From NCBI GenBank assembly GCA_947625575.1, contig CANQOV010000001.1, forward strand, positions 1,498 through 65,497: a DNA stretch of 64,000 nucleotides. The letters run 5' to 3'. The position numbers and the translations under genes were made by a program. The stretch comes from an uncultured Bacilli bacterium. Its GTDB lineage: Bacteria > Bacillota_I > Bacilli_A > RF39 > UBA660. The notes under the pieces were generated by a model, which saw nothing but the letters and a program-made list of their open reading frames with translations, was not told the origin of the DNA and ran no database searches. This document shows, piece by piece, positions 3,470 through 30,662 of this stretch (positions are counted from its first letter, which is position 1; each line of letters starts with the position of its first letter).

Positions 3470-3473
3470 GATA

Positions 3474-8010: not shown

Positions 8011-8030
8011 CTATTTATGGTGATAATATT

Positions 8031-9809: not shown

Positions 9810-10048
9810 TGGAAGAAATATACGAAAGATTAAATCATGTTTTTCAAGATGTATTTGATGATGAGAATATCAAAGTAAATGAAAACACAACTGCAGATGA
9901 TATTGAAGACTGGGATAGTCTTGAACATATAAATCTTGTAGTGGCAGTAGAACAAGAATTTGGTATGAAATTCAACATGAGTGAAGTTACAACAATGAAA
10001 AATGTTGGAGACATGGCTAAAATAGTTCAAGAAAGAAAAACAAAATAA
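9809..10048 (+). CDS. Acyl/peptidyl carrier protein (DltC/ACP-like)
   Basis: 79 aa with the phosphopantetheine attachment motif …EDWDSLEHINLVVAVEQEFG… (DSL). Confidence 0.75.
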   Translation: MEEIYERLNHVFQDVFDDENIKVNENTTADDIEDWDSLEHINLVVAVEQEFGMKFNMSEVTTMKNVGDMAKIVQERKTK

Positions 10049-10514: not shown

Positions 10515-12040
10515 ATTTAACATCATTTAGTTTTATAATATTTTGTATTTTAACATTTACATTATATTTTAGTTTTCCAAAAAAATATAAATGGATAGTT
10601 TTATCTGTATCAAGTTTATTTTTTCTATTCTATAAAAATGTTACATTATCAACTTTGCTACAAGCTTTAATTATTCTTTTTGTATCATATTTTATTGGAT
10701 TAAAACTTGAAAAAAATAAAAATACAAAAACTGGTAAAAAATATTTAACATTTGGAATTTTAATTATTTTAGGTGTACTTATATATCTAAAATATACTAA
10801 TTTATTTTTAACAACTTTTAATCATCTATTTAATTTATTCAATATTAATTTTCAATTTGAATTAGTACATCATAATTCTCTTATAGGTCTTAGTTATTTT
10901 TCCTTAATAATGATTGGATATTTAACTGATATTTATCGTGGTGTTACTAATGCTGAAAAAAATATATTTAAATGTGCTTTATTTATGAGTTATTTTCCAA
11001 TTTTAAATTCTGGTCCTTTCGTAAAATATGATCAAATGAAAGAAAGTTTATATAAAGATCATAAATTTGATTTTGATAGATTAAAAAGAGGAGCAATAAG
11101 AGTTTTATGGGGAATATTTAAAATTCTTGTTATTTCCCAAAGACTTGGTATATTTGTAGATAAAGTATATGGCGATTTAACTAAATTTAAAGGTGTATAT
11201 GTTGTAATAGCGTGTTTGTTCTTTACATTGCAATTATATACTAATTTTTCTGGCTCAATTGATATGATTATGGGTATTTCAGAAATATTTGATATTAAAT
11301 TACCTGAAAACTTTGATGCACCATTTTTCTCAAAGACAATAACTGAATTATGGAGAAGATGGCACATAACTCTTGGTGCTTGGTTAAAAGATTATATATT
11401 TTATCCTTTATTAAAATCTGATTTTATGCAAAAAATAGGAAAATTTTGCAAAGAAAAATTTGGTAAGAAAGCCTATAAAAAAGTTCCACTTTATTTATCT
11501 ATGTTTGTTATGTGGATATTAATTGGAGCTTGGCATGGTGGAGCTTATACATTTATAATTGGATCTGGATTATTACAATTTATTTATATGTTTTTAGAAG
11601 ATAATTTAACTCCAATATCAGATAAAATAAATAACAAACTTGGCATAAACAAAGAAACATTTATTTATAGATTATATCAAAGAATAAGAACTTTTCTATT
11701 ATTTTCTTTTTCAATGATATTCTTTAGAGCAGAAAGCGTTAGTAAAGCAATAAAAATCATAAAAGCAATGTTTGTAAGAAATTATCATGTTTTAATAGGA
11801 AAATCACTATTCAAAGCAGGTCTTAATATAAGTAATTTTGCAGTATTAATAATAGCATTAGTAATTCTATTTATCGTTGAATTATTTAAAAATCGTGGCA
11901 AAGACGTAAGAGATATTTTAGATAAGCAAAATATAGTATTTAGATGGATAATTTATTTTGCCTTAATATTTGGTATAATTATATTTGGTTGTTATGGAGT
12001 AGGATATAATCCAGCTGACTTTATTTATAGAGAATTTTAG
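10511..12040 (+). CDS. MBOAT-family membrane O-acyltransferase (DltB/AlgI-like)
   Basis: 509-aa polytopic membrane protein. MBOAT-like C-terminal core (…WRRWHITLGAWLKDYIFYPL… with the conserved His). Overlaps the upstream stop (ATGA). Confidence 0.8.
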   Translation: MNLTSFSFIIFCILTFTLYFSFPKKYKWIVLSVSSLFFLFYKNVTLSTLLQALIILFVSYFIGLKLEKNKNTKTGKKYLTFGILIILGVLIYLKYTNLFLTTFNHLFNLFNINFQFELVHHNSLIGLSYFSLIMIGYLTDIYRGVTNAEKNIFKCALFMSYFPILNSGPFVKYDQMKESLYKDHKFDFDRLKRGAIRVLWGIFKILVISQRLGIFVDKVYGDLTKFKGVYVVIACLFFTLQLYTNFSGSIDMIMGISEIFDIKLPENFDAPFFSKTITELWRRWHITLGAWLKDYIFYPLLKSDFMQKIGKFCKEKFGKKAYKKVPLYLSMFVMWILIGAWHGGAYTFIIGSGLLQFIYMFLEDNLTPISDKINNKLGINKETFIYRLYQRIRTFLLFSFSMIFFRAESVSKAIKIIKAMFVRNYHVLIGKSLFKAGLNISNFAVLIIALVILFIVELFKNRGKDVRDILDKQNIVFRWIIYFALIFGIIIFGCYGVGYNPADFIYREF

Positions 12041-12048
12041 GTGATAAA

Positions 12049-13101
12049 ATGAAAAATTATAAAAATTTAATAAAAGTTATAATATTTATTTTTATATTTT
12101 GTATATTATGGCATATAACATTTAAAATATTGTGGGGTGAAAATACAGCACTTTCTTATTTTTATGAAGAAAAAGAAAACACAATTGATGTAGCCTATGT
12201 TGGTGCTAGTAATGTTTACGTATACTTTAACACAACACTTGCATACAACGAATATGGTTTTACAACCTATAATATTGCTACCGACTCGCAACCATTTGTC
12301 TATATAAAATACCTCCTTAAAGAAATTCAAAAATACCAAAAACCAAAACTTTACATAATTGATATAACGAGAATTATTTCAAATCCAGATTATTATGATG
12401 AAAATTCAATAAGAAAATTAATTGATAGTATGAAAAAATCATATAATCAATATGAAGCTTTAACTAGTGTTTTGGATTATTTAGAAATGCCAAATGAAGA
12501 AAGAGTAAATTATTATTTTAGTTTTCTTTTATATCACAATAGATGGGAAGACTTTAAAGGGAAAAGTTTGACTGAAAATACAAATTTATATAAAGGTTTT
12601 CAAACAAAAAATTATAATTTCAATATTAAACCTCAAAAGAAAATATTATGGAATAATGATTCATCTATTAAAGTAACTGACAAAAATAAAGAAGTTTTGC
12701 TAGATTTATTAGAATATATAAATGATAATAATTTAAACGTACTTTTTACAATTCCATGTAGAACATTTAATGCTACAGAAATGAGTAAATTAAATGATGC
12801 AACCAAAATTATTAATAAATATGACTACCAAGTAATAAATTTTAATCAAAATGATTCTTACATTGATTACTCAAATGACTTATATAATCCAAATCATTTA
12901 AATATATATGGCTCAACAAAATTTACATTATATTTTGCCAAATATTTAGATAATATTTATAATTTGCCTGATCATAGAAATGATGAAAAATATTCATCTT
13001 GGGTTGAAGAATACAATAGATTTAAAAGCAAATATGAGCAAAAAACAAATAATAATTTTGAAGCTTTAGTCAAAGAATATAAAGAAAAATATAATTTTTA
13101 A
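12049..13101 (+). CDS. DltD/AlgJ-like membrane-anchored SGNH-fold protein (MBOAT partner)
   Basis: N-terminal TM anchor. Putative nucleophile block VAYVGASNVY and His block NPNHLNIYG. Sits immediately after the MBOAT gene. Weak motif-level call. Confidence 0.4.
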   Translation: MKNYKNLIKVIIFIFIFCILWHITFKILWGENTALSYFYEEKENTIDVAYVGASNVYVYFNTTLAYNEYGFTTYNIATDSQPFVYIKYLLKEIQKYQKPKLYIIDITRIISNPDYYDENSIRKLIDSMKKSYNQYEALTSVLDYLEMPNEERVNYYFSFLLYHNRWEDFKGKSLTENTNLYKGFQTKNYNFNIKPQKKILWNNDSSIKVTDKNKEVLLDLLEYINDNNLNVLFTIPCRTFNATEMSKLNDATKIINKYDYQVINFNQNDSYIDYSNDLYNPNHLNIYGSTKFTLYFAKYLDNIYNLPDHRNDEKYSSWVEEYNRFKSKYEQKTNNNFEALVKEYKEKYNF

Positions 13102-16195: not shown

Positions 16196-17503
16196 ATGAA
16201 AAAAAAGGTTTATATAGCAATGTCTGCTGATGTTATACATCAAGGTCACATCAATATCATCGAAGAAGGTGCAAAATATGGAGATGTAATAATTGGTTTA
16301 CTAACTGATGAAGCTATTGCTAGTTACAAACGCATGCCACTATTAAATTATGAAAATAGAAAAAAAATATTTGAAAATCTTAAAAATGTTACTGAAATAG
16401 TACCACAAAGCACGCTTGACTATACTGAAAATCTAAGAAAAATTAAACCAGATTATGTATTACATGGAGATGATTGGCGTACAGGAATTCAAAGTGTAGT
16501 TAGAGATAATGTAATTAATACCTTAAAAGAATGGAACGGAGAATTAATTGAAATACCTTATACTAAAGATGTAAATTCTACTGATTTAGAACATAAATAT
16601 CGTGAACTTACAAATACACCTGATATAAGAAGAGCAAAACTTCGTCAACTTTTAAAATTTAAACCATATATAAGTGTTATGGAAGCATCAAATGGATTAT
16701 CAGGATTAATTGTTGAAAATGCAACTGCCATTAATCGCGATAGTAAAACGACAAAAGAGTTTGATGCGATGTGGGTTAGTAGTTTATGTGATTCAACATT
16801 TAAAGGAAAACCTGATATTGAATTAGTTGATTTAACTAGTAGAATAAATACAATCAATGAAATATTGGAAGTTACTACTAAACCAATAATATTAGATGGT
16901 GATACTGGTGGTAAAATAGAGCATTTTGTATACAATGTTAAAACCTTAGAAAGACTTGGAGTTTCAGCTATTATTATTGAAGATAAAACAGGTTTAAAGA
17001 AAAATTCATTATTTGGTACAGAAGTTAAACAAACTTTAGATGATCCAGATAGATTTGCAGAAAAAATAAAAGCAGGAAAACAAGCTCTTGCAACAAAGGA
17101 TTTCATGATTTTTGCAAGATTAGAAAGCTTAATTGCTGGTATGGGAATAGATGATGCTTTATCAAGAGCTGATAAATATATCGAAGCAGGAGCAGATGGA
17201 ATAATGATTCACAGCAAAGAAAAAACAGGATTGGATATAAAAGAATTTTTAGAAAGATTTAAGAAAAAATATCATAATGTTCCAACAATAGTAGTACCTA
17301 CTTCATATAATCAATTTACAGAAGAAGAATTACATGAGTGGGGTGCAAATATAATTATTCATGCAAATCATTTATTAAGGAGTGCATATCCAGCAATGAT
17401 GAAAACAGCTAAAACAATACTAGAAAATGGCAGAAGCAAAGAAGCTGATGAGTATTGTATGCCAATAAAAGAAATTATAACATTAATTCCGGGGGGAAAA
17501 TAA
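16196..17503 (+). CDS. pepM: Phosphoenolpyruvate mutase (PepM/AepX) with N-terminal cytidylyltransferase-like (HxGH) domain
   Basis: N-terminus …[16 protein letters not shown]… (HxGH nucleotidyltransferase). C-terminal PEP mutase core …ILDGDTGG…IIIEDK…. Confidence 0.8.
17492..17497 (+). repeat. G6 tract at the pepM stop / ppd start junction
   Basis: …att ccg ggg gga aaa TAA a ATG… Loss of one G puts ppd in frame with pepM. Confidence 0.85.
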
Positions 17504-17504
17504 A

Positions 17505-18614
17505 ATGATAGATACAGAAGAATTTTACAAATATTTAATTAGTAAAAAACTTGATTTTTTTGCTGGTGTTCCTGATTCTTTATTAAAAAACTTATGTGCT
17601 TGCATTAAAGCTAACACTAAAACAGATCACAACATCATTGCTGCCAATGAGGGAAATGCTATTGCAATGGCTGCAGGATATCATATTGCATCAGGCAATT
17701 ATGGTGTCGTATATATGCAAAATTCTGGTATCGGAAATGCAGTTAATCCATTACTTTCTTTAGTAGATGAAGAAGTGTATAGTATTCCAATGCTATTAAT
17801 TGTAGGTTGGAGAGGAGAGCCGGGCACAAAAGATGAGCCACAGCATGTTAAACAAGGAAAAGTAACTATTGAATTATTTAAAACAATGGGAATTGAAACT
17901 ATTATTTTAGATGAAAATTATAAAAGCCAAATAGACTATTGTTATAATTATATGAAAGAAAACAATAAACCAATTGCTGTTATCATAAAAAAAGGTTTAT
18001 TTAGTAATTATAAAATAGATATGCCTGAAAACAATTATCAAATAAAAAGAGAAGAAGCTTTAGAAACAATATTAAAATGTTTAGATAAAGATGATTTTGT
18101 AGTTTCAACTACAGGAAAAACATCAAGAGAAATTTTTGAAATAAGAGAAAGAGATAACGAAGAACACAGTAATGACTTTTTAACAGTTGGATCTATGGGA
18201 CATACTTCATCTATTGCACTTGGTATGAGTATTGGGTGTGACAAAAATATTTATTGTATAGATGGCGACGGATCTTTTATTATGCATATGGGCTCTTTTG
18301 CCATAATTCCATCAGTAGCAAGTAAAAATTTTAAATATATTTTAATAAACAATGGTGCTCATGAATCTGTAGGAGGTCAACCAACTGTAGCATTTAATAT
18401 TAACGTTAAAGATACATTATTATCATTAGGTTTTAAAAATGTTTATACAGCATATACAAAAGAAGATATTGAAAAATATATGAAAAATTTAAAATACGAC
18501 AAATTACAAGCATTAGTAGTTTACACTAAATTAGGATCTAGAGAAGATTTAGGACGTCCTACAATTAGTCCTGTTGATAATAAAAAATCAATGATGAAAA
18601 AATTAAATAAATAA
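17505..18614 (+). CDS. ppd: Phosphonopyruvate decarboxylase (TPP-dependent)
   Basis: TPP-binding motif …CIDGDGSFIMHMGS… Size 369 aa. Immediately downstream of pepM. Confidence 0.75.
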   Translation: MIDTEEFYKYLISKKLDFFAGVPDSLLKNLCACIKANTKTDHNIIAANEGNAIAMAAGYHIASGNYGVVYMQNSGIGNAVNPLLSLVDEEVYSIPMLLIVGWRGEPGTKDEPQHVKQGKVTIELFKTMGIETIILDENYKSQIDYCYNYMKENNKPIAVIIKKGLFSNYKIDMPENNYQIKREEALETILKCLDKDDFVVSTTGKTSREIFEIRERDNEEHSNDFLTVGSMGHTSSIALGMSIGCDKNIYCIDGDGSFIMHMGSFAIIPSVASKNFKYILINNGAHESVGGQPTVAFNINVKDTLLSLGFKNVYTAYTKEDIEKYMKNLKYDKLQALVVYTKLGSREDLGRPTISPVDNKKSMMKKLNK

Positions 18615-18643
18615 CATTAAAATGGAGGAAGTAATAATATTCA

Positions 18644-19387
18644 ATGAAAGCAATAATATTTAATTCAGGAATCGGAAAAAGGATGGGGGATTTCACAAAA
18701 ACACATCATAAGTGCATGGCTGTACTAAATAATGGTGAAACAATATTAGAACGTCAAATAAGAATAATTGGTGAAAATGGAATAAATACATTTATCATCA
18801 CAACCGGTCCATTTAAGCAACAATTATTAGAAGTATGCAAAAAATTCCCTGATTATCAATTTGTTTTTGTTGATAATCCTTTATATCAAAAAACAAATTA
18901 CATATATTCCATGTATTTAGCAAAAGATTATCTTAATGATGATGTTTTATTGCTTCATGGAGATTTAGTATTTAATCAAGAACTAGTAAAAAGTATGCTA
19001 GGTGATAAACGTAGTTCAGTATGTTTAATAAATGAAGACAAACCATTACCTGAAAAAGATTTTAAAGCAAGGGTAGAAAATGGATTATTAAAAGAAGTAT
19101 CAATAAATATCTTTGATAGCAATTGTTATGCTTTTGAGCCATTATACAAGTTAAGTAAATCTGATTTATTAAAATGGCTAGAAAAAGTGAAAGAATTTGT
19201 AAATGAGGGCAATGTAAGCGTTTATGCCGAAAATGCATTGAATACTATATTAGACACATTAAAAATATATACTAAATCATATAAAAATGATTATATTGAT
19301 GAAATAGATAATATTGATGATTATTCAAGAGTTAGAAAAGAAATAGATGAATATGAAAAGAAAAGATTAAGATCTTTGAGAGGATAA
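18644..19387 (+). CDS. LicC/PntC-like cytidylyltransferase (NDP-activation of a phosphonate or phospho-alcohol)
   Basis: N-terminus MKAIIFNSGIGKRMG… gives the nucleotidyltransferase G-x-G-x-R motif. About 240 aa, as for LicC. Confidence 0.6.
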   Translation: MKAIIFNSGIGKRMGDFTKTHHKCMAVLNNGETILERQIRIIGENGINTFIITTGPFKQQLLEVCKKFPDYQFVFVDNPLYQKTNYIYSMYLAKDYLNDDVLLLHGDLVFNQELVKSMLGDKRSSVCLINEDKPLPEKDFKARVENGLLKEVSINIFDSNCYAFEPLYKLSKSDLLKWLEKVKEFVNEGNVSVYAENALNTILDTLKIYTKSYKNDYIDEIDNIDDYSRVRKEIDEYEKKRLRSLRG

Positions 19388-19388
19388 A

Positions 19389-21707
19389 ATGAAACAACAA
19401 ATATATATTGATAATTATAAAAATTTAAATAAAAAAATAGATTTTAAAAAATACAAATCAATTTTATTGATTTGTAGTAATTTTATTTTAGATTCATTTT
19501 TTTATGATTACATAACTAAATTGAATTTACCAATACATATTTTTACAAATTTTAGTCCTAATCCTAAATATGAAGAAGTTCTAGAAGGTATAAAAATTTT
19601 TAAAGAAAATAAATGTGATTTTCTTATAGCAGTGGGTGGAGGAAGTGCCTTAGACGTTGCAAAAGCTATCAAAGCTTTTGTGTTTTTAGATGAAAATAAA
19701 AATTATTTAGAGCAAAAAATAGTGCCAAATAATATACCACTTCTTGCTGTTCCAACCACTGCAGGAACAGGTAGTGAAGCTACAAAATTTGCCGTTATAT
19801 ATTACGCTGGAGCAAAACAGTCATTAGAAGATGAATCATTGCTTCCAGATTATGTAATACTTGAGCCAAAGTTTCTAGAAAGCCTACCAGAATATCAAAA
19901 AAAATCAACTCTTTTAGATGCTTTATGTCATGCAATAGAATCATACTGGTCAATTAATGCTACCAAAGAAAGTAGAAAATATGCCAAACAAAGTTTAGAA
20001 ATAATTCTTAAAAACTATAAAGATTATCTAAATAATCCAACAAAAAAATTAAATAGTGAAATATTAAAAGCAGCTAATTTAAGTGGAAAAGCCATAAATA
20101 TAAGTAAAACGACCGCAGCTCATGCCATGAGTTACAAAATAACATCAATATATGGTTTATCACACGGACACGCTGCTGCAACATGTCTTCCACTTGTATG
20201 GAAATATATGTTAAAATACTCTAACAAAGAATTAGATAAAATATTTAATGATTTAGATAAAATATTTAAGACAACTTCACACCAAGAATCTATTAATAAA
20301 TTGTATTCAATCTATGATGAAATAGGATTAAAATATAAAAACATTGTAAATAAAGAGGATTTAGATAAATTAGTGGAAACAGTTAATATAAATCGTTTAA
20401 AAAATAGTCCAGTACCATTAACACAAAAAGATGTGAAAAAGATATATAGTAAATTAGTTATAAAAGAAAACAAAACATTTAAAAAAAGTATTAAAAACGT
20501 CGTAAATAAAATTCCTTTCATCAAAAAAATATTAAATTATCTTTTATTAATAAAAAGGAAAGTAGTATATAAATTTTATAAAATACGTTACAAAACCAAT
20601 GATAAAATAATCATATTTTCATCTTTTTGGAGTAAAAAATATAATTGTAATCCTAAAGGTATATATGAAGCATTATTAAAGAACAAAAAATATAACGACT
20701 ATAAATTTGTTTGGGTATTTAAAAATCCAAAGCAGTACACTTTTTTAAATGATAACCATAATACCACAACAGTGCGTTTATATTCTAAAAAGTACTATAA
20801 ATATTGTGCACAAGCCAAATATTTTATAACTAATGTTTCATTACCTAGTTGGGTAACACCAAAGAAAGATCAAATATATATAAATACTTGGCATGGTAAA
20901 CCAATGAAAAAAATTGGTTGTAATATAGATCACTCTGCTTTACCACCAAAAAAACTAAAAAAGCAAACAAAAGGATTTAAAAGAAATGGCAAAATATTTA
21001 CCTACTTGTTTTCACCAGCACCATTTTTTACAGCACAAATGGCTACAGCCTATGGTCTTGGAAAAGATAGCAAAAAAGTTATTGAAGTAGGCTATCCAAG
21101 AAATGATTTTTTATTCACATATACAGCCAAAGATGCTAAAGAAATAAAAGATAAATTAAATATTAAAGATAATAAAAAAGTTATATTTTATGCTCCAACT
21201 TGGAGAAATTATGAATATGATACTAAAAAATATAGTTATACTTATCAAAATCATCTAGACTTTGATAAATTAATTAAACAACTAGGAAATGATTATGTAA
21301 TTTTATTTAAAGCCCACAATCAAGAAGAGAACAGTGCTGATATATCAAATTATAAAAATGTTATTGATGTTAGTAGTTTTGACGATATTAACGAATTGTA
21401 TATCATCTCAGATTTAATGATTTCTGATTATTCTGGAGCAATCTTTGACTATGCTAACTTACATCGACCAATGGTTTATTACATGTGGGATAAAGATGAA
21501 TATGTAAATGAAAGTCAAGGCATTGACTTTGATTTTAACGAATTGCCCGGAGAAATTGTTACAAAAGAAGAAAATTTAGCTTCTGCTATAAAAAATGCAT
21601 TAAATAATTTTAAGTATGATGAAAAATATAAAAAATTTAATGAAAGATATAATTGCTTAGATGGAAAAGATTGTGGAAATAAATTCATTGAAAAATATAT
21701 AAAATAG
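19389..21707 (+). CDS. Fusion protein: N-terminal iron-containing alcohol dehydrogenase (putative phosphonoacetaldehyde reductase) and C-terminal TagF-like CDP-alcohol phosphotransferase
   Basis: N-terminal …LIAVGGGSALDVAKAIKAF… is the group-III Fe-ADH signature. C-terminal …YINTWHGKPMKKIG… is the TagF-family motif. 772 aa. Confidence 0.6.
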   Translation: MKQQIYIDNYKNLNKKIDFKKYKSILLICSNFILDSFFYDYITKLNLPIHIFTNFSPNPKYEEVLEGIKIFKENKCDFLIAVGGGSALDVAKAIKAFVFLDENKNYLEQKIVPNNIPLLAVPTTAGTGSEATKFAVIYYAGAKQSLEDESLLPDYVILEPKFLESLPEYQKKSTLLDALCHAIESYWSINATKESRKYAKQSLEIILKNYKDYLNNPTKKLNSEILKAANLSGKAINISKTTAAHAMSYKITSIYGLSHGHAAATCLPLVWKYMLKYSNKELDKIFNDLDKIFKTTSHQESINKLYSIYDEIGLKYKNIVNKEDLDKLVETVNINRLKNSPVPLTQKDVKKIYSKLVIKENKTFKKSIKNVVNKIPFIKKILNYLLLIKRKVVYKFYKIRYKTNDKIIIFSSFWSKKYNCNPKGIYEALLKNKKYNDYKFVWVFKNPKQYTFLNDNHNTTTVRLYSKKYYKYCAQAKYFITNVSLPSWVTPKKDQIYINTWHGKPMKKIGCNIDHSALPPKKLKKQTKGFKRNGKIFTYLFSPAPFFTAQMATAYGLGKDSKKVIEVGYPRNDFLFTYTAKDAKEIKDKLNIKDNKKVIFYAPTWRNYEYDTKKYSYTYQNHLDFDKLIKQLGNDYVILFKAHNQEENSADISNYKNVIDVSSFDDINELYIISDLMISDYSGAIFDYANLHRPMVYYMWDKDEYVNESQGIDFDFNELPGEIVTKEENLASAIKNALNNFKYDEKYKKFNERYNCLDGKDCGNKFIEKYIK

Positions 21708-21719
21708 AAAGGGGTATTT

Positions 21720-24149
21720 ATGAATAAAAACATAAAAGTCTCGGTTATCGTTCCGGTGTATAATGTAGAAAAATATTTAGATAAATGTTTAACATCATTA
21801 GTTAATCAAACACTGAAAGATATTGAAATAATTGTAGTAAATGATGGTACCAAAGACAATTCACAACATATTATTGATAAATATACTAAACAATATCCAA
21901 ATAAGGTTTTTTCCTATATTAAAGAAAATGGTGGATTATCTTCTGCTAGGAACTATGGTGTTTTAAAAGCACACGGGGAATATTTAGGCTTTGTTGATAG
22001 TGATGATTACGTTGATATAAATATGTATGAACTTATGTACAATAAAGCTCATAACACTTCATCTGATATTGTTGTATGTGGACTTACTTCAATATATCAA
22101 AATAAAGATACTCTTAAATTTGTCCCTCAAACTGATATTTTTGGCTATTCACTTACAGAAAGTCCAGACATAATGTTGCAGTGTAATTCATATGCTTGCA
22201 ACAAAATTTATAAAAGAAAAATGTGGATAGATAACAACATTGAATTTCCTAATCAATGGTTTGAAGATAGTGCTTTAATATATAACGCTTTATATTATGC
22301 AAATAAAATTGAGGTGGTAAAAGAGCCACTTTACATGTACTTAAGAACTAATGAAAACTCTATTGTTAATACAATTAATCCCAAGATATTTGATATCTTT
22401 AAATCTTGTGATTCATTATTATCTTTTTATAAAGATAAAGGTAATGACTTATATAGAAATGCTTGCAACTTATGTATTTCCCATGTAACAGCAAGATTTT
22501 TATATTTTAAAAATTCTCACGATAAAAAAATTATCAATGATTTTAAAAATAAAGCCAAAGATTACTTTGATAAGCATATTCCAAATTGGGATAGTAGAAA
22601 ATATCAAAAAGAATTACATTATAGACCAAAATTCATAAAAAATGGTATCACATATATAAACAATAAATTTCTTTACGATTTACTAAAAATAATAGAAAAA
22701 ATAAAAAAAGTATTAATAAAAATTGCAAAGAAAATGTTAAGAATTTTATCAAAAATATTTAATAAAAAAAGAGATGTCGCTCCTCTTAAAGATGTATTTA
22801 AAATATTTAAAAAATTAAATATAACTTACTTTTGTGAATTTAACACTTTAATTGAAGTAACAAACAATAAAATGCCAAACAGTAATTCTTTAAATATTGG
22901 TATTATATTAAATAATGATAAAATTAATATTTTAAAATATAATTTACTACAAAAAAATATAATTTTAAAAAAAGAATATTACTACAATAATAAAGTATAT
23001 GCTCAAGATTATCTATACGAAAAATTAAAAATAAGATTTAATTTTTATGAAATAGAAGATAAAAAACTAATAACTTATGTTTTTAAAAAATTAAAAAATA
23101 TCAAATATAAACCATACAAAATAGATGCTTTAAAAATTAAACAAACAATAATAAAAGATATAGAAACAGTTAATATCAATAATATAGAATTTTCCATACC
23201 AAAAAACTATGATGAAATATTAAAAACAGATTATGGATTAAGCTATATTAAATCAAATAATATAAAAGACATAAAAAACTCTGAAATAATAAAAAACAAT
23301 TCTTATTTTAAAAGAATAATAAGTTATAATAATGATGGCATTGATTATAGAGAAGAAAATTATAAAATGCTACAAGAACTACATAAAATAGAGCTTGAAA
23401 TTCTAAAAGAAATAAATAAAATATGTAAACGCAATAAAATAAATTTCTATTTAGGTGAAGGGACATTACTAGGAGCAGTAAGACATCAAGGATTCATACC
23501 ATGGGATGATGATATTGATTTAATTATGCCAAGAGAAGATTATGAAAAATTCTTAAAAATTGCCCCACAAGAAATATCAAAAGATTTTGAAATTCAGCAT
23601 AGTTCTTTAATTGAAAATTATTGGTCTCCTTTTATTAAAGTAAGATATTTAAAAGAAAACAAATTTAAACAAACGCACATTGCACATTTAACTGATCATA
23701 ATGGTCCATTAATTGATATTTTCCCTTTAGATAATGTTCCAAAAAAAGATAGTTTAGGTCAAATGATACAAGCAATAAGAATCAAATTTAACCGAGGGAT
23801 GTTATCATATAAATTAAAAACAAGATTTCCTAAAAAGTGGAAAGGATATATTGTTAAATGTTGTTCTTACTTTGTAAGTGTAAAACATATTCATAAAGTA
23901 TTAAATAAAACTTTTGTTAAATACAACAATAAAAATAATCCATATATTGTTAATTTAGGAAGTTACTATAGTTATAAAAAACAAACACATCCTAAAAAAT
24001 GGTATGCTAAACCACAAATGGTAAAATTTGAAAATTTGACTATGCCAATACCACATGAGGCCAAAAAAATATTATCAAGTGTATATGGCAAATATATGGA
24101 ACTACCACCTGTTGAAAAAAGAGCTATAAAACATCACTTTGATGAATAA
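21720..24149 (+). CDS. Fusion protein: N-terminal GT2 glycosyltransferase, long K/N/I-rich middle region, C-terminal LicD-family phosphotransferase
   Basis: N-terminal …VSVIVPVYNVEKYLDKCL…VVNDGTKDN…GFVDSDD… is GT-A/GT2. C-terminal …GEGTLLGAVRHQGFIPWDDDIDLIMPRED… is the LicD motif. 809 aa. Confidence 0.65.
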   Translation: MNKNIKVSVIVPVYNVEKYLDKCLTSLVNQTLKDIEIIVVNDGTKDNSQHIIDKYTKQYPNKVFSYIKENGGLSSARNYGVLKAHGEYLGFVDSDDYVDINMYELMYNKAHNTSSDIVVCGLTSIYQNKDTLKFVPQTDIFGYSLTESPDIMLQCNSYACNKIYKRKMWIDNNIEFPNQWFEDSALIYNALYYANKIEVVKEPLYMYLRTNENSIVNTINPKIFDIFKSCDSLLSFYKDKGNDLYRNACNLCISHVTARFLYFKNSHDKKIINDFKNKAKDYFDKHIPNWDSRKYQKELHYRPKFIKNGITYINNKFLYDLLKIIEKIKKVLIKIAKKMLRILSKIFNKKRDVAPLKDVFKIFKKLNITYFCEFNTLIEVTNNKMPNSNSLNIGIILNNDKINILKYNLLQKNIILKKEYYYNNKVYAQDYLYEKLKIRFNFYEIEDKKLITYVFKKLKNIKYKPYKIDALKIKQTIIKDIETVNINNIEFSIPKNYDEILKTDYGLSYIKSNNIKDIKNSEIIKNNSYFKRIISYNNDGIDYREENYKMLQELHKIELEILKEINKICKRNKINFYLGEGTLLGAVRHQGFIPWDDDIDLIMPREDYEKFLKIAPQEISKDFEIQHSSLIENYWSPFIKVRYLKENKFKQTHIAHLTDHNGPLIDIFPLDNVPKKDSLGQMIQAIRIKFNRGMLSYKLKTRFPKKWKGYIVKCCSYFVSVKHIHKVLNKTFVKYNNKNNPYIVNLGSYYSYKKQTHPKKWYAKPQMVKFENLTMPIPHEAKKILSSVYGKYMELPPVEKRAIKHHFDE

Positions 24150-24153
24150 AAAT

Positions 24154-24189
24154 ATATTTAGAATAATAAACTAAATATGTTTTTTTATT
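24154..24189 (+). terminator. Putative rho-independent terminator after the GT2::LicD gene
   Basis: ATATTTAG-aataataaa-CTAAATAT followed by GTTTTTTTATT. The stem is AT-rich, so the hairpin is weak. Confidence 0.35.
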
Positions 24190-24368
24190 AAATTTATTTT
24201 AATTTTCTGATTATTTAGTTTTTATCATGTACATAATAAAAAATAGTAACTTCTTTAGAAATATCATACAATAAATATTCAGTGATATTAATCAATAAGA
24301 ATAATATGAAGTCATCAAAAGAATTTAATTGATTTTCATATATAATATGATTATGCCCTGACATATTG

Positions 24369-24397
24369 TTGACAGAGTCCGGGGGGGGGGTTATAAT
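24369..24397 (+). promoter_or_regulatory. Promoter with a homopolymeric G10 tract forming the -35/-10 spacer (candidate phase-variable promoter)
   Basis: TTGACA (24369-24374), spacer GAGTCC+G10+T = 17 nt, TATAAT (24392-24397). RBS AAGGTGG, then ATG at 24432. Confidence 0.5.
24381..24390 (+). repeat. G10 homopolymer (simple-sequence contingency tract)
   Basis: Ten consecutive G in an AT-rich genome, read directly. Confidence 0.95.
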
Positions 24398-24431
24398 AAA
24401 AATATAAATTAGTATATCAAAGGTGGTTTAA

Positions 24432-25220
24432 ATGAAAGAAAAAATATTGTTATTTATACCAATGTATAACTGTGAAAAACAAGTAATAAGAGTTTTAAAT
24501 CAAATAGATAGCGAAGTAGCAAAATATATAAAAGAAATATTAGTAGTAAATAACCGAAGCACCGATAATGGTGAAAAAGCTGTGCTCGATTTCACCAAAC
24601 AAAGCAAGCTTAAAATTACTATAGTAAGAAATGATGAAAACTATAACCTTGGAGGATCACATAAAGTTGCTTTTCAATATGCAATTGATAATGAATATGA
24701 CTATGTAATTGTATTGCATGGTGATGATCAAGGTAATATTCATGATTTATTACCTTATCTTAAAAATGAAGATTATAAAAAATATGATTGTTTACTTGGA
24801 TCACGATTTATAAAAGGATCAAAATTACAAGGATATTCTAAATTTAGAACATTTGGTAATATAGTATATAACTATTTATTTTCTTTTGTAATTCATAAAA
24901 GAGTATATGATTTAGGATCTGGATTAAATATGTATTCTACTGAAATGTTAAAAAGCAATTACTATTTTAAATTCCCAGATAAATTAACATTTAACTATTT
25001 AATGGTATTAGCAATACATTACTATCATCAAAATGTTAAATTTTTCCCAATTACATGGAGGGAAGATGATCAAGTATCTAATGTTAAAATGGTTAATCAA
25101 GCATTTGAGGTTTTAAAAATGTTATTTAAATACATGTTTAATCATGATTATATAAAAAGTGAATTTAGAGATAAACAAGTACGAAAATATACATATAAGG
25201 AAATAAAAAATGACAAATAA
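24432..25220 (+). CDS. GT2 family glycosyltransferase (GtrB / polyprenyl-phosphate sugar synthase-like, soluble form)
   Basis: …LLFIPMYNCEKQV…VVNNRSTDN…VLHGDDQG… 262 aa. Confidence 0.65.
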   Translation: MKEKILLFIPMYNCEKQVIRVLNQIDSEVAKYIKEILVVNNRSTDNGEKAVLDFTKQSKLKITIVRNDENYNLGGSHKVAFQYAIDNEYDYVIVLHGDDQGNIHDLLPYLKNEDYKKYDCLLGSRFIKGSKLQGYSKFRTFGNIVYNYLFSFVIHKRVYDLGSGLNMYSTEMLKSNYYFKFPDKLTFNYLMVLAIHYYHQNVKFFPITWREDDQVSNVKMVNQAFEVLKMLFKYMFNHDYIKSEFRDKQVRKYTYKEIKNDK

Positions 25221-26088
25221 AAGTAAATGGATATATAATTTTATAAATATTGGATTTTTATTAATTACTTTAATATTCTTTTTTCAAAAACGTTTATATA
25301 TCATAAATCCAAATTTTACTATTTTTCAATTTTTCTTACTTGTTTTACTCATAATTTTTATTCACTCTTTAAAGTTTTTTAAACTTTATTTTATCGTATT
25401 AGAAGAAAAAATTCCTTTTAAAAATATGCTGAAAATATATATAAAATCAACTTTTTCTAGCATAGTATTGCCTTTTAAAATAGGAGAAATATATAAAGCA
25501 TATTTAATAGGTCATGAAATAAAAAATTATAAAAAAGGTATTATAGCAGTTCTTATTGATAAATTTTATGACGCAATAATTCTTTGCATATCCTTTATCT
25601 GTTATAGCATAATTGCAAATGTAACATTAACAATAACAACCTGGATACTTTTAATTATAATTATTATGATAGTAATTGTATATTATTCTTTTCCAGGAAC
25701 ATATCGCTATTTAAATCGTTTCTTTATTCAAGGCAAACACTCTAACAGAAACATATACGTTTTGCGTGTTTTAGAAAGTTTAGAAAGTTGTTATACAACA
25801 GCAAAAGAAATGATTTGTGGAAGAAGCCTTTTATTTGTTTCACTTGGAATATTTTACTGGCTAGGTGAATCTGTATTTATTTATTTTGTAGTACATGCTT
25901 ATGGATTATTAATAAATTTTGGAAACGTTGTTTTATATGTTAACGATGCCTTTTTAGGAATAAATAATCCTATTTTTAACGTTTATGTATCTATGTGTAC
26001 ATTATTATTTATAATTGCTATAGCATTTATATATTTTGAAAAATATTTTTTAGGAGGTAACAATGAAAAAGTTAGCAGTCATTTATGA
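25210..26088 (+). CDS. Polytopic membrane protein, flippase-like domain (LPG-synthase TM region / PF03706-like)
   Basis: About 8 TM segments. A …LPFKIGEIYKAY… motif is reminiscent of the PF03706 flippase-like family that commonly pairs with GT2 enzymes. Overlaps the upstream gene. Confidence 0.4.
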   Translation: MTNKSKWIYNFINIGFLLITLIFFFQKRLYIINPNFTIFQFFLLVLLIIFIHSLKFFKLYFIVLEEKIPFKNMLKIYIKSTFSSIVLPFKIGEIYKAYLIGHEIKNYKKGIIAVLIDKFYDAIILCISFICYSIIANVTLTITTWILLIIIIMIVIVYYSFPGTYRYLNRFFIQGKHSNRNIYVLRVLESLESCYTTAKEMICGRSLLFVSLGIFYWLGESVFIYFVVHAYGLLINFGNVVLYVNDAFLGINNPIFNVYVSMCTLLFIIAIAFIYFEKYFLGGNNEKVSSHL

Positions 26089-27484
26089 TGATAGAATAGA
26101 GTCAAATGATAGGATAAAAACAATTATTGGCAATAATAGTTTTGGTAACGTTGTCATAAAAAGAAAAAAATTATTTCAATACATAGAAGAAATAGTAGGT
26201 GAAACACCTGATATACTTTTTGAAAAAATTACAAAAGATAGCAACATCACTTTTGCAGATACCGATGATTACGTATATTTTTATATCAAATCAACATCAG
26301 CAGTAATAGATGTAAAAGAATTCAAAATTATATTAGAAAAATTAAGATACATCAACGAAACTACTAAAGTTATGACTAATGAAAAGATGTCAGGTATAGC
26401 TTTTTGTAATTTTGAATTGTTAAAAGACTTTTTAAAAAATATGACTGTTTCTTCAAAAACTAATCAAATAAATACTGCCTGCTTCTCTGATATATCTTCG
26501 TATGATAATTTATTAATGTATATTTCTAGTGCTTTTGATTCTAGATATTTTAATAGTATTTCAGGGGATAAATATTATGTAGAAAAAAAGAGCAAAGATA
26601 AAAAGAAAATGAAAATGGAATATAGCTATTACTGGTTAATTCCAGAAGAAATGAAAAGCTTTATGGTTTTACCATACGACTATAAAGAAGAAAAAGACTA
26701 TGCATCATATAAAATGGAAAGGATGCCTATGACAGACATTGCTATTCGTTTTACCCATCATGCCGTTGACCTAGATGAATTTAAAAAAATATTAGATAAA
26801 ACTTTTCACTTCTTCAATAGTAGAACTAAAAAAGAAATAACCAAAGAAAAATATATAGAAATGGCTAAATCATTATATATTACTAAAACAGAAGAACGTT
26901 TAAAAAAATTAAAAAGTACTGAAGAATATGAAACATTAAATTTATATATTAAAAATGGCACAAAATTTAATGATATAGAAGAAATTTACCAAGAATATGA
27001 AACAATTTATGAAAAAATGATGACAAAATATTTGAAAAAAGAAAAGAAATTTTATCAAGTAATTGGCCATGGAGATGTTTTCTTTGCCAATATGTTATAT
27101 AGCAAAGAAATAAATTTATTGAGACTTATTGATCCCAAAGGAGCTTTGACAGAAGAAGATTTATATATGAATCCTTATTATGATATTGCTAAATTATCAC
27201 ACTCAATATGTGGTAGATATGACTTTTTTAACACTGATATGTACGACATTACAATAAATAAAGATATGAAACTTGAATTAAATATTGATTTTGATAATAC
27301 ACCTTATATTATGGTATTCAAACAATATTTAGATGACAATGGTTATAACTATTCGTTAACCAGATTATTTGAAGCGAGTTTATTTTTATCAATGCTACCA
27401 CTTCATATAGATAATCCAAGAAAAGTATTAGGATTTATCTTAAATGCTATTACTATTTTACAGGAGGTAAAAAAATATGTATAA
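26063..27484 (+). CDS. Two-domain protein with C-terminal APH/choline-kinase-like small-molecule kinase domain
   Basis: Brenner-type catalytic motif …VIGHGDVFFANMLY… (HGDxxxxN) and downstream …RLIDPKG… The N-terminal 220 aa has no recognisable motif. Confidence 0.4.
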   Translation: MKKLAVIYDDRIESNDRIKTIIGNNSFGNVVIKRKKLFQYIEEIVGETPDILFEKITKDSNITFADTDDYVYFYIKSTSAVIDVKEFKIILEKLRYINETTKVMTNEKMSGIAFCNFELLKDFLKNMTVSSKTNQINTACFSDISSYDNLLMYISSAFDSRYFNSISGDKYYVEKKSKDKKKMKMEYSYYWLIPEEMKSFMVLPYDYKEEKDYASYKMERMPMTDIAIRFTHHAVDLDEFKKILDKTFHFFNSRTKKEITKEKYIEMAKSLYITKTEERLKKLKSTEEYETLNLYIKNGTKFNDIEEIYQEYETIYEKMMTKYLKKEKKFYQVIGHGDVFFANMLYSKEINLLRLIDPKGALTEEDLYMNPYYDIAKLSHSICGRYDFFNTDMYDITINKDMKLELNIDFDNTPYIMVFKQYLDDNGYNYSLTRLFEASLFLSMLPLHIDNPRKVLGFILNAITILQEVKKYV

Positions 27485-27878
27485 TGACATAACTTTAGTT
27501 TTTGATGTAGATGGCACTCTTTGTCCGATTAAAACTACTGATGAAGAATACAAAGACTTAATACCAGATAAAGAAATGGTTGAGAAATTAAAAATGTACA
27601 AAAAAGAGGGTGCCAAAATTATTATATATTCATCAAGAAACATGAGAACATATCAAGGCAACATAGGTCTTATAAATGCTAATACAGCTGTAATTATGCA
27701 AGATTGGTTAAAAAAATGGGATATTCCTTATGATGAAATATATTTTGGCAAGCCATGGGCAGGTAAAAAAGGAATATACATAGATGATCGTTGTGTAAGA
27801 CCTGATGAATTTCTAAATTATTCTTTTGATGAACTTGAACAAATATGTAAAAAATCTAGTAGAGTAAAAGGAGAATAA
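27477..27878 (+). CDS. Small HAD-superfamily phosphatase
   Basis: HAD motif I …LVFDVDGTLCP… and motif IV …GIYIDDR… 133 aa. Confidence 0.55.
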   Translation: MYNDITLVFDVDGTLCPIKTTDEEYKDLIPDKEMVEKLKMYKKEGAKIIIYSSRNMRTYQGNIGLINANTAVIMQDWLKKWDIPYDEIYFGKPWAGKKGIYIDDRCVRPDEFLNYSFDELEQICKKSSRVKGE

Positions 27879-27882
27879 AATT

Positions 27883-28602
27883 ATGCAAATAATTATAACT
27901 ATGGCAGGGTTAGGCTCTAGATTTCGTAAAGCAGGATATGACATGCCTAAATATATGATTGAAGTAAAAGGTAAAACTTTATTTGAGTGGTCTATGTCAA
28001 GCCTAAAAGATTTTAATTCTTTAGAAAAGTTAAAATACATATTCATTGTACGCAAAGAAGACAACGCTAAAGAATTTATCCTAAATAAAATGAAAAATGA
28101 AAAAGTAGAAAATATAAAAGTAATTGAAATAGATGAATTAACTGATGGTCAAGCTACAACAGCATATTTAGCAAAAGATTATTGGGATTCTGATGATGAA
28201 ATGATTGTTTACAATATTGATACTTATGTAGAAGCATATACTATATGTTATAAAGATATTAAAGGTGATGGCTTTATTCCTTGCTTTAATGCCCCAGGTG
28301 ATCATTGGAGCTTTGTAAAAACAGATAGTAATAACAAAGCCATAGAAATAAGAGAAAAAGTAAAAATATCTGATAATTGTACTATTGGATTATATTATTT
28401 TAAATCTTGTAAATTATATGAAAACTTGTATCAAGAATACTACAGCAACAATGACCACTTAGAAAAAAATGAAAAATATATTGCTCCTTTATATAATCAT
28501 ATGTTAGAAAAAAATATGGACATATATATAAATATCTTACCTAAAGAAAAAGTACATGTATTAGGAACACCAGAAGAAGTGGAAGAGTTCAAAAAATTAT
28601 GA
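27883..28602 (+). CDS. Nucleotidyltransferase (LicC / sugar-1-P or phospho-alcohol NDP-transferase-like)
   Basis: N-terminus MQIIITMAGLGSRF… is a G-x-G-S-R nucleotidyltransferase loop. 239 aa. Confidence 0.55.
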   Translation: MQIIITMAGLGSRFRKAGYDMPKYMIEVKGKTLFEWSMSSLKDFNSLEKLKYIFIVRKEDNAKEFILNKMKNEKVENIKVIEIDELTDGQATTAYLAKDYWDSDDEMIVYNIDTYVEAYTICYKDIKGDGFIPCFNAPGDHWSFVKTDSNNKAIEIREKVKISDNCTIGLYYFKSCKLYENLYQEYYSNNDHLEKNEKYIAPLYNHMLEKNMDIYINILPKEKVHVLGTPEEVEEFKKL

Positions 28603-30662
28603 AAAAATTATTAAATAATATATGGCAAATATATCATAAGTATGAAGAAATACTAAATTACTTAATAGTAGGAGCAATAGGAGTAGTAATTAGTGTTGTA
28701 TCATATGCCTTAAGCAGATGGATTGGTTTTAATATTGTAACAAGTAATATTATTTCATGGATAATTGCAGTTTTATGCATGTATATCATGAATAAACTTT
28801 TTGTATTTAAAACTAAATTAGAGAATAAAAAAGCATTATTTAAAGAATTTATATCATTTATTACAGCCAGAGTATTCACTTTGATTGTAGAAACACTAAT
28901 CCTTTACTTTGGAACAAATTTACTACATATTAATGATTTATTTGTTAAGGTCATAGCACAAATAGTAATAATTATTTTAAACTACATATTAAGTAAATTA
29001 ATTATATTTAATAAAAACAAAAATCCTAATTCTAAAAAAAAAATACTAAATCGCTTTAATTTTTTATTAGACAAAAAAGTGTTTTTAATTTCTTCAATAA
29101 TATGGCTTATTTATTTTATTACAGGAATCCAAGATAGATTTTTCATAAATAATAATCTATCTTTCAAATCAATATTGCCATACAAAATATTACAATTCAT
29201 ATTATTTTATTTTTTTGGTTTAATAGTTAAAAAAATAATTAGTAATAGAAAAGATATAAAATGTAAACATGGCATTATAATTGGTACCGTATTCGCTATA
29301 ATTATGTTTATATTACTACTAACAATGTGGCCTGGTACTTGGTCATGGGATGATGCTATAACATTAAGGCATGCTCAAACTTATACTATATATCCTTGGC
29401 AACATTTTATTTGTTCTTTGTTCTATATTGTTAGTTTAGAAACATTTCCATTTATGAGCGGAGTTATTATAATGCGTATCATAATAATTTCTATCATTAT
29501 GGGCTATAGTATTTCTAATATTGTTGATATATTCAAAAAAACAGAAAAACAGAGAATAACATATGAAATATTTTTATTAATACCAAGTTTATTTCCTCCA
29601 GTAATTATGTATACTTTATCAGGATATCGAATGGGAATATATAGTTTTATTGAACTACTTTTAATTGTACAATTAATAATAATATTTTATAAAAAGAAAA
29701 AATTAACAATAGGAAATTTTATAGGTTTAGCATTTACTATAATTTTAGTTGCTTCATGGAGAACTGAAGGTATTTACTATATTCCTTGTGTAGCACTTAT
29801 TCTTTTATTCCTAAACAAAAAAATTATACCTAGAAAACAAATATTAACTTTATTTATTATTACGTTAAGTTTTACAATGATAATTAATAAAGTCAATACA
29901 TCTTTAATAGCAAATGATAATTACTCTATAACAGCCATTGTAGAGCCTTTACAAGCATTAATCAAAAAAGCAGATCCTAACGAAGATAAAAGCACATTAC
30001 AACAAATAAGTAGGGTGATTGATATAGACTATATTTATAACAACCCAAATTTGCATGGCGAACAACTTTACTGGAGCCATAAATTAGTAAAACCTAATTA
30101 CAGTAAAGATGACTTTAAAGCCTTATTTAAATCTTATATCAAATTAACTTTAAAATATCCATTAACTTCCATAAAAGCAATGACTAAAATGTATTTAAAA
30201 AGCAGTGGAATTATTTTAAAAAAAGATGGTACTGTTTATCAAAAAACTAATATAAGTCAAGCTTTGACATTATATAATGATGATAACACAGCATGGAGTA
30301 GCATTAGAAACATTAAATCTAGTTTTAAAAAAGCCTCTTCTATAAGAAATCAAACTATGCTTTTATTACGAGGATTTAATAATGACAATAAACCCAATAT
30401 TATTCATTATATATTTTGGAACTTAAACATACCAATTTTATTATTATCGCTATGTTTTATATATAAATTATTTAAAAAAGATTGGTTTTTTAGTAGCATA
30501 ATATTTGTAGTTATGTTAAGAATACCTTTGGTATTTATCACATCTCCAGCACCATACTACATGTATTATCACTCAGTATATTTAATAACATATATAATTG
30601 TATTTTTAATTTTAATAGAAGCTATATTTAATAGTAAAAATAAAAAAGATAATTTAAAATAA
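28599..30662 (+). CDS. Large polytopic membrane protein with N-terminal GtrA-like domain fused to a 550-aa multi-TM (GT-C/GtrC-like?) region
   Basis: Residues 1-130 match GtrA-family topology/sequence (…YLIVGAIGVVISVVSYALSRW…MNKLFVFKT…). Then 12 or more TM segments with periplasmic loops. 687 aa. Confidence 0.45.
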   Translation: MKKLLNNIWQIYHKYEEILNYLIVGAIGVVISVVSYALSRWIGFNIVTSNIISWIIAVLCMYIMNKLFVFKTKLENKKALFKEFISFITARVFTLIVETLILYFGTNLLHINDLFVKVIAQIVIIILNYILSKLIIFNKNKNPNSKKKILNRFNFLLDKKVFLISSIIWLIYFITGIQDRFFINNNLSFKSILPYKILQFILFYFFGLIVKKIISNRKDIKCKHGIIIGTVFAIIMFILLLTMWPGTWSWDDAITLRHAQTYTIYPWQHFICSLFYIVSLETFPFMSGVIIMRIIIISIIMGYSISNIVDIFKKTEKQRITYEIFLLIPSLFPPVIMYTLSGYRMGIYSFIELLLIVQLIIIFYKKKKLTIGNFIGLAFTIILVASWRTEGIYYIPCVALILLFLNKKIIPRKQILTLFIITLSFTMIINKVNTSLIANDNYSITAIVEPLQALIKKADPNEDKSTLQQISRVIDIDYIYNNPNLHGEQLYWSHKLVKPNYSKDDFKALFKSYIKLTLKYPLTSIKAMTKMYLKSSGIILKKDGTVYQKTNISQALTLYNDDNTAWSSIRNIKSSFKKASSIRNQTMLLLRGFNNDNKPNIIHYIFWNLNIPILLLSLCFIYKLFKKDWFFSSIIFVVMLRIPLVFITSPAPYYMYYHSVYLITYIIVFLILIEAIFNSKNKKDNLK

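Follow-up and report, generated by a model that had tools for sequence, protein, structure and literature searches.

A G10 tract in the spacer of a consensus promoter, a candidate length-dependent control of a glycosylation operon in an uncultured gut Bacilli bacterium

Ten consecutive guanines lie between a consensus -35 and a consensus -10 hexamer, in front of a six-gene operon, in the 64,000-nucleotide stretch of contig CANQOV010000001.1 that was analyzed here (the window, from an uncultured Bacilli bacterium). A sequence-only reading had taken this arrangement for a slipped-strand, phase-variable promoter (ON/OFF or volume control) of a glycan-modification operon, through which the organism would reversibly vary a surface epitope. 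The question raised by the locus is whether it is indeed a promoter whose spacing is set by an unstable tract and what such a promoter would control, or whether the tract is spacer filler, an element acting at another level, or an artefact of sequencing.

Promoter anatomy and the intergenic gap

The + strand at 24369-24397 reads TTGACA GAGTCC GGGGGGGGGG T TATAAT. Sequence reading and a promoter scan placed the -35 hexamer TTGACA at 24369-24374, followed by a 17-nt spacer, GAGTCC-GGGGGGGGGG-T, at 24375-24391 (16 nt in L082, one of the assemblies described below) and by the -10 hexamer TATAAT at 24392-24397; the geometry proposed earlier was exact in both analyses. The G10 homopolymer (24381-24390, + strand), the presumed slippage-prone element, takes up 10 of the 17 spacer positions between hexamers that match the consensus 12/12, and this is the sole 12/12 sigma-70/sigma-A match (TTGACA-N16-18-TATAAT) in the 64 kb. 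The promoter has no TG extended -10, and the G at -14 is kept at any tract length. From the usual 7-nt distance, the transcription start site would be predicted at about 24404. The ribosome-binding site (RBS) AAGGTGG at 24420-24426 and the ATG of the first operon gene at 24432, both read from the + strand sequence, complete a unit in which the distances from the -10 to the RBS and the ATG are canonical and the promoter sits 35 nt 5' of the start codon.

A perfect hexamer pair alone is unremarkable in A+T-rich DNA, as 0.24 matches to TTGACA-N16-18-TATAAT are expected per window and at least one was present in 20/100 shuffles. The tract itself is far less expected. Guanine accounts for 11.9% of the + strand of the window, which has a GC content of 25%, and G runs of lengths 1-6 were counted 5462, 898, 78, 15, 2 and 1 times, respectively, whereas only one G8 (at 10451) and the one G10 exceed length 6; the longest C run is 5. 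The earlier remark that G runs are scarce in this genome thus holds for the window. Runs of at least ten guanines are expected at 3.5e-5 (iid) to 2.7e-4 (first-order Markov) per window, and because the tract is so improbable, its position inside the spacer of the only perfect promoter is far beyond chance. Homopolymers are hypermutable from ~7-8 G/C upward. The G10 tract is longer than this and over-represented relative to composition; in PMC4965091, the poly-G length threshold is 7 or more.

The gap between the upstream GT2-LicD gene (21720-24149) and the ATG at 24432 measures 282 nt. In the rest of this gap no second + strand promoter-like site of at least 9/12 was found; one further + strand 9/12 match, at 24139-24167, starts within the upstream gene, straddles its stop codon and ends 18 nt into the gap. 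An AU-rich hairpin followed by U7, at 24149-24185 on the + strand, was identified through an inverted repeat (I7, 14 nt, 93%) and folding (dG -11.6 kcal/mol, z -3.6, with 0/200 shuffles folding equally well), and represents a candidate weak intrinsic terminator that would insulate the six-gene operon from the LicD operon. The consensus terminator scan missed this hairpin because its stem contains too few G-C pairs. Since the hairpin is weak and AU-rich, read-through from the LicD operon is possible and could blunt an OFF state. Altogether, the terminator candidate upstream, the lack of a rival + strand promoter in the rest of the gap and the canonical RBS and ATG agree with the earlier placement of this promoter as that of the operon.

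Other roles for the gap were considered and discarded. A riboswitch or leader RNA was ruled out, as no Rfam element was found in the window, nor in 24050-24550 at a relaxed threshold (E <= 1), and the 5' UTR of the operon is unstructured (folding z 0.28). Likewise, a coding role of the G10 tract was ruled out by stop codons in every frame across it and by the lack of an ATG/RBS leader.

The six-gene operon and its surroundings

The six co-directional genes at 24432-30662 (+ strand) overlap by 11, 26, 8 and 4 nt, with one 4-nt gap, and one weak terminator-like hairpin lies within the third of them. The first gene (24432-25220) encodes a GT2 glycosyltransferase of 262 aa (PF00535, 9.9e-16), a candidate polyprenol-phosphate sugar synthase in the role of GtrB or CsbB. 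Its weak NCBIfam matches (AglJ, dolichyl-P hexose transferase, ArnC and PpgS) are all to polyprenol-P transferases and lie far under the cut-offs, and its best PDB match is the dolichol-phosphate mannose synthase (DPMS) 5mlz, at 8.8e-5. GtrB and CsbB carry C-terminal membrane helices, and the operon GT2, ~50 aa shorter than these proteins, would lack them; the adjacent LPG_synthase_TM protein may act as a substitute. The latter, encoded by the second gene (25210-26088), is a flippase-like polytopic membrane protein of 292 aa (PF03706, 3.2e-16).

The following three genes appear to serve sugar activation. The third (26063-27484) encodes a 473-aa protein recognized by its motif, HGDxxFxN...IDPKG, with the invariant residues H336, G337, D338, N343 and D357. 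No Pfam, NCBIfam or PDB sequence match was obtained for this protein, profiles included, and its motif would fit an APH/choline-kinase-like sugar kinase. The fourth (27477-27878) encodes a 133-aa HAD-IIIA phosphatase of the EcbF/BcbF 'capsule biosynthesis phosphatase' type, whose TIGR01689 match (1.9e-43) falls just below the curated cut-off, and the fifth (27883-28602) a 239-aa protein that resembles sugar-1-phosphate nucleotidyltransferases through weak GlmU-type, RmlA, HddC and MurU matches. As an analogy only, the kinase/phosphatase/nucleotidyltransferase trio is reminiscent of the AmgK/MupP/MurU logic.

The sixth gene (28599-30662) encodes a 687-aa protein that combines a GtrA domain (aa 21-137; PF04138, E 1.3e-21, with the whole profile covered) with a predicted GT-C-fold glycosyltransferase domain (aa ~160-687). 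The C-terminal ~530 aa matched nothing by sequence in Pfam, NCBIfam or the PDB, profiles included. A confident AlphaFold2 model of the protein, based on an alignment of 24 homologs, has a pLDDT of ~90 across the C-terminal domain, and the GT-C domain was resolved by fold search only; the enzymes ranked first by Foldseek have E-values that are not significant. GT-C enzymes are expected to carry an acidic motif in their first loop, and a WPGxWSWDD motif is invariant in the alignment of this family. Additionally, proteins matching only the GtrA part are mostly GtrA-YfhO fusions, so that the C-terminal domain occupies the place of a known GT-C.

Other features of this protein and its family were observed. 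The signature WPGxWSWDD...R...WR.E is invariant in the family, which has neither a Pfam model nor, by sequence, a solved relative, and which is widespread beside the GT2/LPG_synthase_TM/kinase/HAD/NTase cassette. An A10 run at 29034-29043 encodes the KKK of the linker between the GtrA and GT-C domains. A slip in this run would part GtrA from GT-C, which are separate genes in most relatives; such a run is unexceptional at 40% A and may mean nothing.

Taken together, these assignments suggest that the operon would encode a three-component extracytoplasmic glycosylation system, consisting of a GT2, a GtrA-family protein and a GT-C enzyme, with its own nucleotide-sugar route; Gtr of Salmonella and Shigella phages is built on the same three components. 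The GtrA domain and the GT-C fold were both found, and for the GT2 component the domain is present and the polyprenol-P family matches stay far below their cut-offs. The expression 'Gtr-like glycan-modification operon' used in the sequence-only reading was a fair description.

The operon lies on the chromosome of a Firmicute, with SpoIVB, SpoIIM, MurT/GatD, NusB, exonuclease VII and HisRS encoded in the window; the presence of SpoIVB and SpoIIM identifies the organism as an endospore former. According to Pfam/NCBIfam annotation, 8-32 kb of the window form a wall-glycopolymer locus, with genes for an FkbH-like protein, a glyoxalase-fold protein, a DltB-like MBOAT, two TagF-like glycerophosphotransferases and a TagG/TagH-like ABC exporter; a 350-aa ORF of this locus (12049-13101) had no Pfam or NCBIfam match. 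Its phosphonate branch consists of a PEP mutase, a TPP-dependent enzyme (phosphonopyruvate-decarboxylase-like by context) and an Fe-alcohol-dehydrogenase domain. Within 16196-24149, a PEP mutase-cytidylyltransferase fusion, an Fe-alcohol dehydrogenase-TagF-like polymerase fusion, an NTP transferase and the GT2-LicD fusion were observed, and this set of genes suggests a teichoic-acid-like polymer decorated with phosphonate (2-hydroxyethyl- or aminoethylphosphonate).

Apart from the G10, the window has one long G run, the G8 at 10451-10458, located in the C-terminal tail of the glyoxalase-fold ORF (10059-10514), past the Pfam domain. With eight guanines this ORF extends 21 codons further, to a TGA that overlaps the start codon of the DltB-like MBOAT gene (10511-12040), and with G7 or G9 it would stop 0-3 codons from the tract. 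A C-terminal or coupling-type phase variation of this acylation module is possible.

The tract in other assemblies and poly-G runs in related loci

Two other assemblies of the same strain contain the region, namely L082 (ENA ERZ27249684, 3145 bp, 2.1x) and L001 (ENA ERZ27249389, 1069 bp, 2.8x). Aligned with window positions 21478-24623 (3146 aligned bases), L082 shows 0 mismatches and one gap, of 1 nt, which falls at the tract's 3' edge. The sequence G10-TTATAAT of the window is G10-TATAAT in L082, which shortens the spacer from 17 to 16 nt; the variant is one T fewer beside the tract, and the G count is 10 in both full copies, an exact number that rests on assembly consensus, with L082 and L001 at 2-3x coverage. 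L001 is 100% identical to the window and its contig starts with GG-TTATAAT, at the last two G's of the tract. Over 4.2 kb of independent, otherwise identical sequence, the sole difference and the sole contig break are thus both found at the tract. This is what a hypervariable tract would produce, and long G runs, being hard to sequence when coverage is low, could produce it as well; the 1-nt variant of L082, at 2.1x coverage, could be a sequencing error after a homopolymer.

These assemblies also bear on the possibility that the tract is a sequencing or assembly artefact (two-colour Illumina poly-G or a long-read homopolymer miscall) and that the true tract is absent or of another length. Artefacts of the poly-G type are well known, the L001 contig breaks inside the tract, and L082 departs from the window at the tract border. 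However, G10 is present in the window and in L082 between unique, otherwise identical flanks, L001 has the same 3' flank, artefactual poly-G occurs at read or contig ends and not between a -35 and a -10 hexamer, and a count error of one would leave the tract in place. Because L082 holds the tract between these flanks and L001 starts inside it, the tract is not an artefact of one assembly, and an artefactual origin is considered highly improbable.

Further copies of the locus were sought in the sequence collections. Searches for proteins identical to the GT2 and to the LicD protein upstream returned one short ENA contig each, those for four proteins around the G8 tract gave no match, and the 90% clusters of three window proteins were singletons. 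Beyond L082 and L001, no strain of this organism was found in the collections searched, and in the scan of species-representative genomes the operon GT2 was matched at 68% identity at most. A metagenome DNA scan for the tract flank gave a lone match, L083, which was rejected as a chance match in a high-GC rpoC-rpsL spacer.

Among 80 related loci, the order GT2, LPG_synthase_TM, kinase-like, HAD and NTase is kept in ~50, and the GT-C gene is usually separate and located just 5' of the GT2 gene. These loci come from Lachnospiraceae, Oscillospiraceae, Treponema, Elusimicrobium and other gut taxa, and the conservation of the gene block across them indicates a horizontally spread cassette. More than 20 G runs of at least 8 are present in the 80 loci, many of them in MAGs of 23-25% GC. 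As a separate observation, the G/C runs of at least 8 in these loci (L002-L081) consist without exception of G, never of C, when read on the glycan-gene strand, a strong and unexplained strand bias.

The closest GT2 proteins are encoded in two rabbit-gut MAGs, L002 (68% identity) and L004 (65%), in which all six tracts (G8-G11) are preceded by a common ~20-nt module, GTTAACAATTAGTCAAC(C/T)AT. The sites are 901-930, 3462-3489 and 6441-6470 in L002 and 6397-6424, 7819-7846 and 10841-10868 in L004. The GTTAACAATTAGTCAAC module reads as the first ~10 codons (M-x-K-L-T-I-S-Q) of a short ORF that has an RBS and an ATG of its own, and it fronts genes for acyltransferase-3, SDR, GT-C and membrane-anchored proteins. 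One copy shares the reading frame of an acyltransferase-3 gene, and in two the frame differs from that of the long downstream ORF. The module looks like a portable phase-variation cassette. The module was also considered as a -35/-10 promoter, a candidate rejected because the spacing would be 22-24 nt. At 7741-7965 of L004, downstream of a TTGATA-17-TATAAT promoter, lies a 42-codon leader ORF with a G8, which stops 24 nt 5' of the ATG of the GT-C gene that directly precedes the GT2 gene. Other tract lengths would end this leader ORF ~90 nt earlier, which suggests control by translational coupling or polarity.

In light of these leaders, the tract of the window could act otherwise than through promoter spacing, either as a regulator site or in a leader transcribed from farther upstream as in L002 and L004, with the hexamers being fortuitous. 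A single perfect hexamer pair in 64 kb is no rarity by chance, given the shuffles mentioned above (20/100), and the GTTGACAGAGTCC-Gn-TTA of the window is loosely like the GTTAACAATTAGTCAAC-Gn-CTTA of L002 and L004, which is not a -35/-10 spacer. Additionally, a weak inverted repeat, CCCTGAC...GTCCGGG, lies around the -35. The module similarity is, however, short and 6 nt out of register, and the window has stops in all three frames around the tract and no ATG/RBS leader. The rest of the gap contains no other + strand promoter-like site, and the spacing from -10 through RBS to ATG is that of an ordinary promoter. A role at another level is therefore considered quite unlikely, and a promoter with the tract in its spacer is the reading that is followed here.

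Poly-G tracts were also found within genes. In-frame G9 tracts occur mid-gene in the GT-C homologs of L095 (at 8794, gene 8001-9674) and L078 (at 9197, ORF 8350-10002), at a similar loop position in both; the L095 protein is the closest GT-C homolog, with 45% identity. The L095 gene adjoins a serine recombinase gene and lies between two CotE fragments, apparently as part of an intervening element by which the sporulation gene cotE is interrupted.

No poly-G tract was found upstream of the homologous operons in L094, L096 and L084-L093. Of these, L094 holds the most similar same-order operon, with the gene order of the window and no tract. This distribution indicates a recent, lineage-specific acquisition of the tract rather than an ancestral one. 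In L084-L093, which hold the same operon, gene calls were observed to differ across samples: the nucleotidyltransferase is called as 247, 229 or 94+55 aa, the acyltransferase-3 as 266 or 249 aa, and a 604-aa glycosyltransferase is split in L089. These differences occur without any G/C run of at least 7, and other frameshift-prone sites may exist.

The comparison also informs the possibility that the promoter is real and strong and the tract mere spacer filler, the operon being in practice constitutive. Consensus hexamers tolerate a 1-nt change in spacing; in the tac/trc(/tic) series, whose hexamers are identical to these, Brosius et al. 1985 reportedly saw only modest in vivo differences between spacers of 16, 17 and 18 bp. 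Exactly G10 is present in both the window and L082, and the closest same-order operon (L094) works without a tract. Against these points, a G10 is expected only ~1e-4 times at 25% GC, long homopolymers are normally purged unless selected, the other long G run of the window also belongs to a wall-polymer decoration module, and the sole difference and sole contig break between the independent 4.2 kb assemblies coincide with the tract. Moreover, the relatives repeatedly carry poly-G at control points of the same cassette, and this repeated gain at different control points argues for selected switchable expression. A mere filler role of the tract is thus judged unlikely.

Proposed mechanism, precedents and wider meaning

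We regard it as likely that 24369-24397 is a sigma-A (sigma-70-type) promoter of the six-gene operon, with a spacing set by a hypermutable G10 tract. Switching at the tract, by which we mean tract instability within the population and a dependence of expression on tract length, would then proceed as follows. Slipped-strand mispairing in replication would add or remove G's and give sibling cells spacers of 15 to 19 nt. G10 would provide the optimal 17 nt and maximal transcription, so that the assembled state is the predicted maximal-expression state; G9 or G11 (16 or 18 nt) would lower transcription, and G8 or fewer or G12 or more would leave the operon effectively silent. Spacers of 17 bp transcribe more than otherwise identical ones of 16 or 18 bp (PMC2613000). 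Because both hexamers are consensus, gaining or losing one G would more probably tune expression than turn it on or off, and an OFF state probably needs a change of two. The promoter-spacer anatomy on which the proposal of a phase-variable promoter was founded stands, whereas single-G ON/OFF switching was overstated, the consensus hexamers favouring tuning.

On the side of the cargo, the kinase-like protein, the HAD phosphatase and the nucleotidyltransferase would make an activated sugar, which the GT2 would load onto polyprenol phosphate. The GtrA domain and the flippase-like protein would carry the lipid-linked sugar across the membrane, and the GT-C domain would attach the sugar to a wall glycopolymer, the acceptor being probably the teichoic-acid-like, phosphonate- or LicD-decorated polymer of the flanking genes. 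The population would consist of a reversible mix of cells with much, little or no surface sugar decoration, which would help against phages and host antibody.

Simple repeats in promoter spacers have precedents in several bacteria. In Mycoplasma hyorhinis, poly-A in the promoter spacer of vlp switches a surface component on and off, and in Haemophilus influenzae, TA repeats in the spacer do likewise and serve the two divergent promoters of hifA and hifB. These systems and the window are alike in having a simple repeat in the promoter spacer, and they differ in repeat type and cargo. In Neisseria meningitidis, poly-G lies between the -35 and -10 of porA and the spacing sets transcription, according to PMC5320596 and PMC7864442 (van der Ende 1995 cited there), and in N. 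gonorrhoeae poly-C lies between those of fetA (PMC5320596). For porA and fetA, as for the window, a G/C homopolymer forms most of the -35/-10 spacer, and there the level of the surface-antigen gene follows its length. The window differs from them in its low-GC, spore-forming Gram-positive host, in its full-consensus hexamers, and in a cargo that is a six-gene glycosylation operon instead of a single outer-membrane protein; for the window, tract variation is a prediction. For Treponema pallidum tp0126 (an OmpW homolog), PMC7864442, citing Giacani et al., describes poly-G between the -35 and -10 with an optimum of 17 nt, and a tract length that varies within isolates, tested by fragment-length analysis and by GFP reporters in E. 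coli. A poly-G spacer is common to tp0126 and the window, with a spirochaete and a single OMP gene in the one case and a Firmicute and an operon in the other.

The cargo has relatives of its own. The phase-variable GtrA/GtrB/GtrC operons of Salmonella and phage P22 (gtr) decorate an existing surface polymer (PMC2909390, PMC3688519). Their switch is epigenetic, through Dam methylation and OxyR (PMC2909390), and their acceptor is the LPS O-antigen, whereas the window has a repeat tract; GtrA is separate in the gtr operons, which lack sugar-activation genes, and is fused in the window, where the operon includes such genes. In the Gram-positive three-component systems, CsbB/GtcA/YfhO of Bacillus and Listeria and GacI-L of streptococci, C55-P-sugar is synthesized by a GT2, its extracellular use depends on a GtrA-family protein, and a GT-C transfers the sugar to LTA, WTA or wall polysaccharide (PMC5836110, PMC7389260, PMC8035078). 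Unlike in CsbB/GtcA/YfhO, the GT-C domain of the window matches neither YfhO nor another Pfam family. We know of no repeat-tract control of the CsbB/GtcA/YfhO or GacI-L systems.

Campylobacter jejuni offers a comparison at the genome level, with a low GC content and rare G runs of at least 8 that are concentrated in surface-glycan genes (PMC4965091, PMC8355987). The Campylobacter tracts are mostly intragenic, whereas that of the window is in a promoter and in a Firmicute. A Campylobacter-like poly-G 'phasome' for wall-glycopolymer decoration in uncultured low-GC gut Firmicutes is offered here tentatively, as a somewhat doubtful extension, in which at least three routes would act on one horizontally spread cassette: promoter spacing (window), the GTTAACAATTAGTCAAC-Gn leader ORF/5' coding cassette (L002, L004) and mid-gene GT-C tracts (L078, L095). 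To our knowledge, contingency-locus systems of this kind are so far undescribed in Gram-positive gut commensals. A full-text literature search returned no account of poly-G promoters controlling wall-polymer glycosylation in Gram-positive bacteria of the gut, which is weak evidence.

The spacer-tract mechanism itself is textbook (porA, tp0126), and what is new here is the host and the type of cargo; the value of the finding lies in these and not in the concept. The finding also points to an unannotated GT-C family (WPGxWSWDD, no Pfam model) in a widely transferred glycosylation cassette. If the tract switches, an uncultured Gram-positive gut bacterium would vary its wall sugar stochastically, by the device known from Neisseria and Treponema. 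In Firmicutes, the glycosylation of wall polymers is a main phage receptor and antibody target, and for this reason such switches would create hidden phenotypic heterogeneity within what microbiome data treat as 'one strain'. They would, if this is true, affect the prediction of phage host range and explain assembly breaks at these sites.
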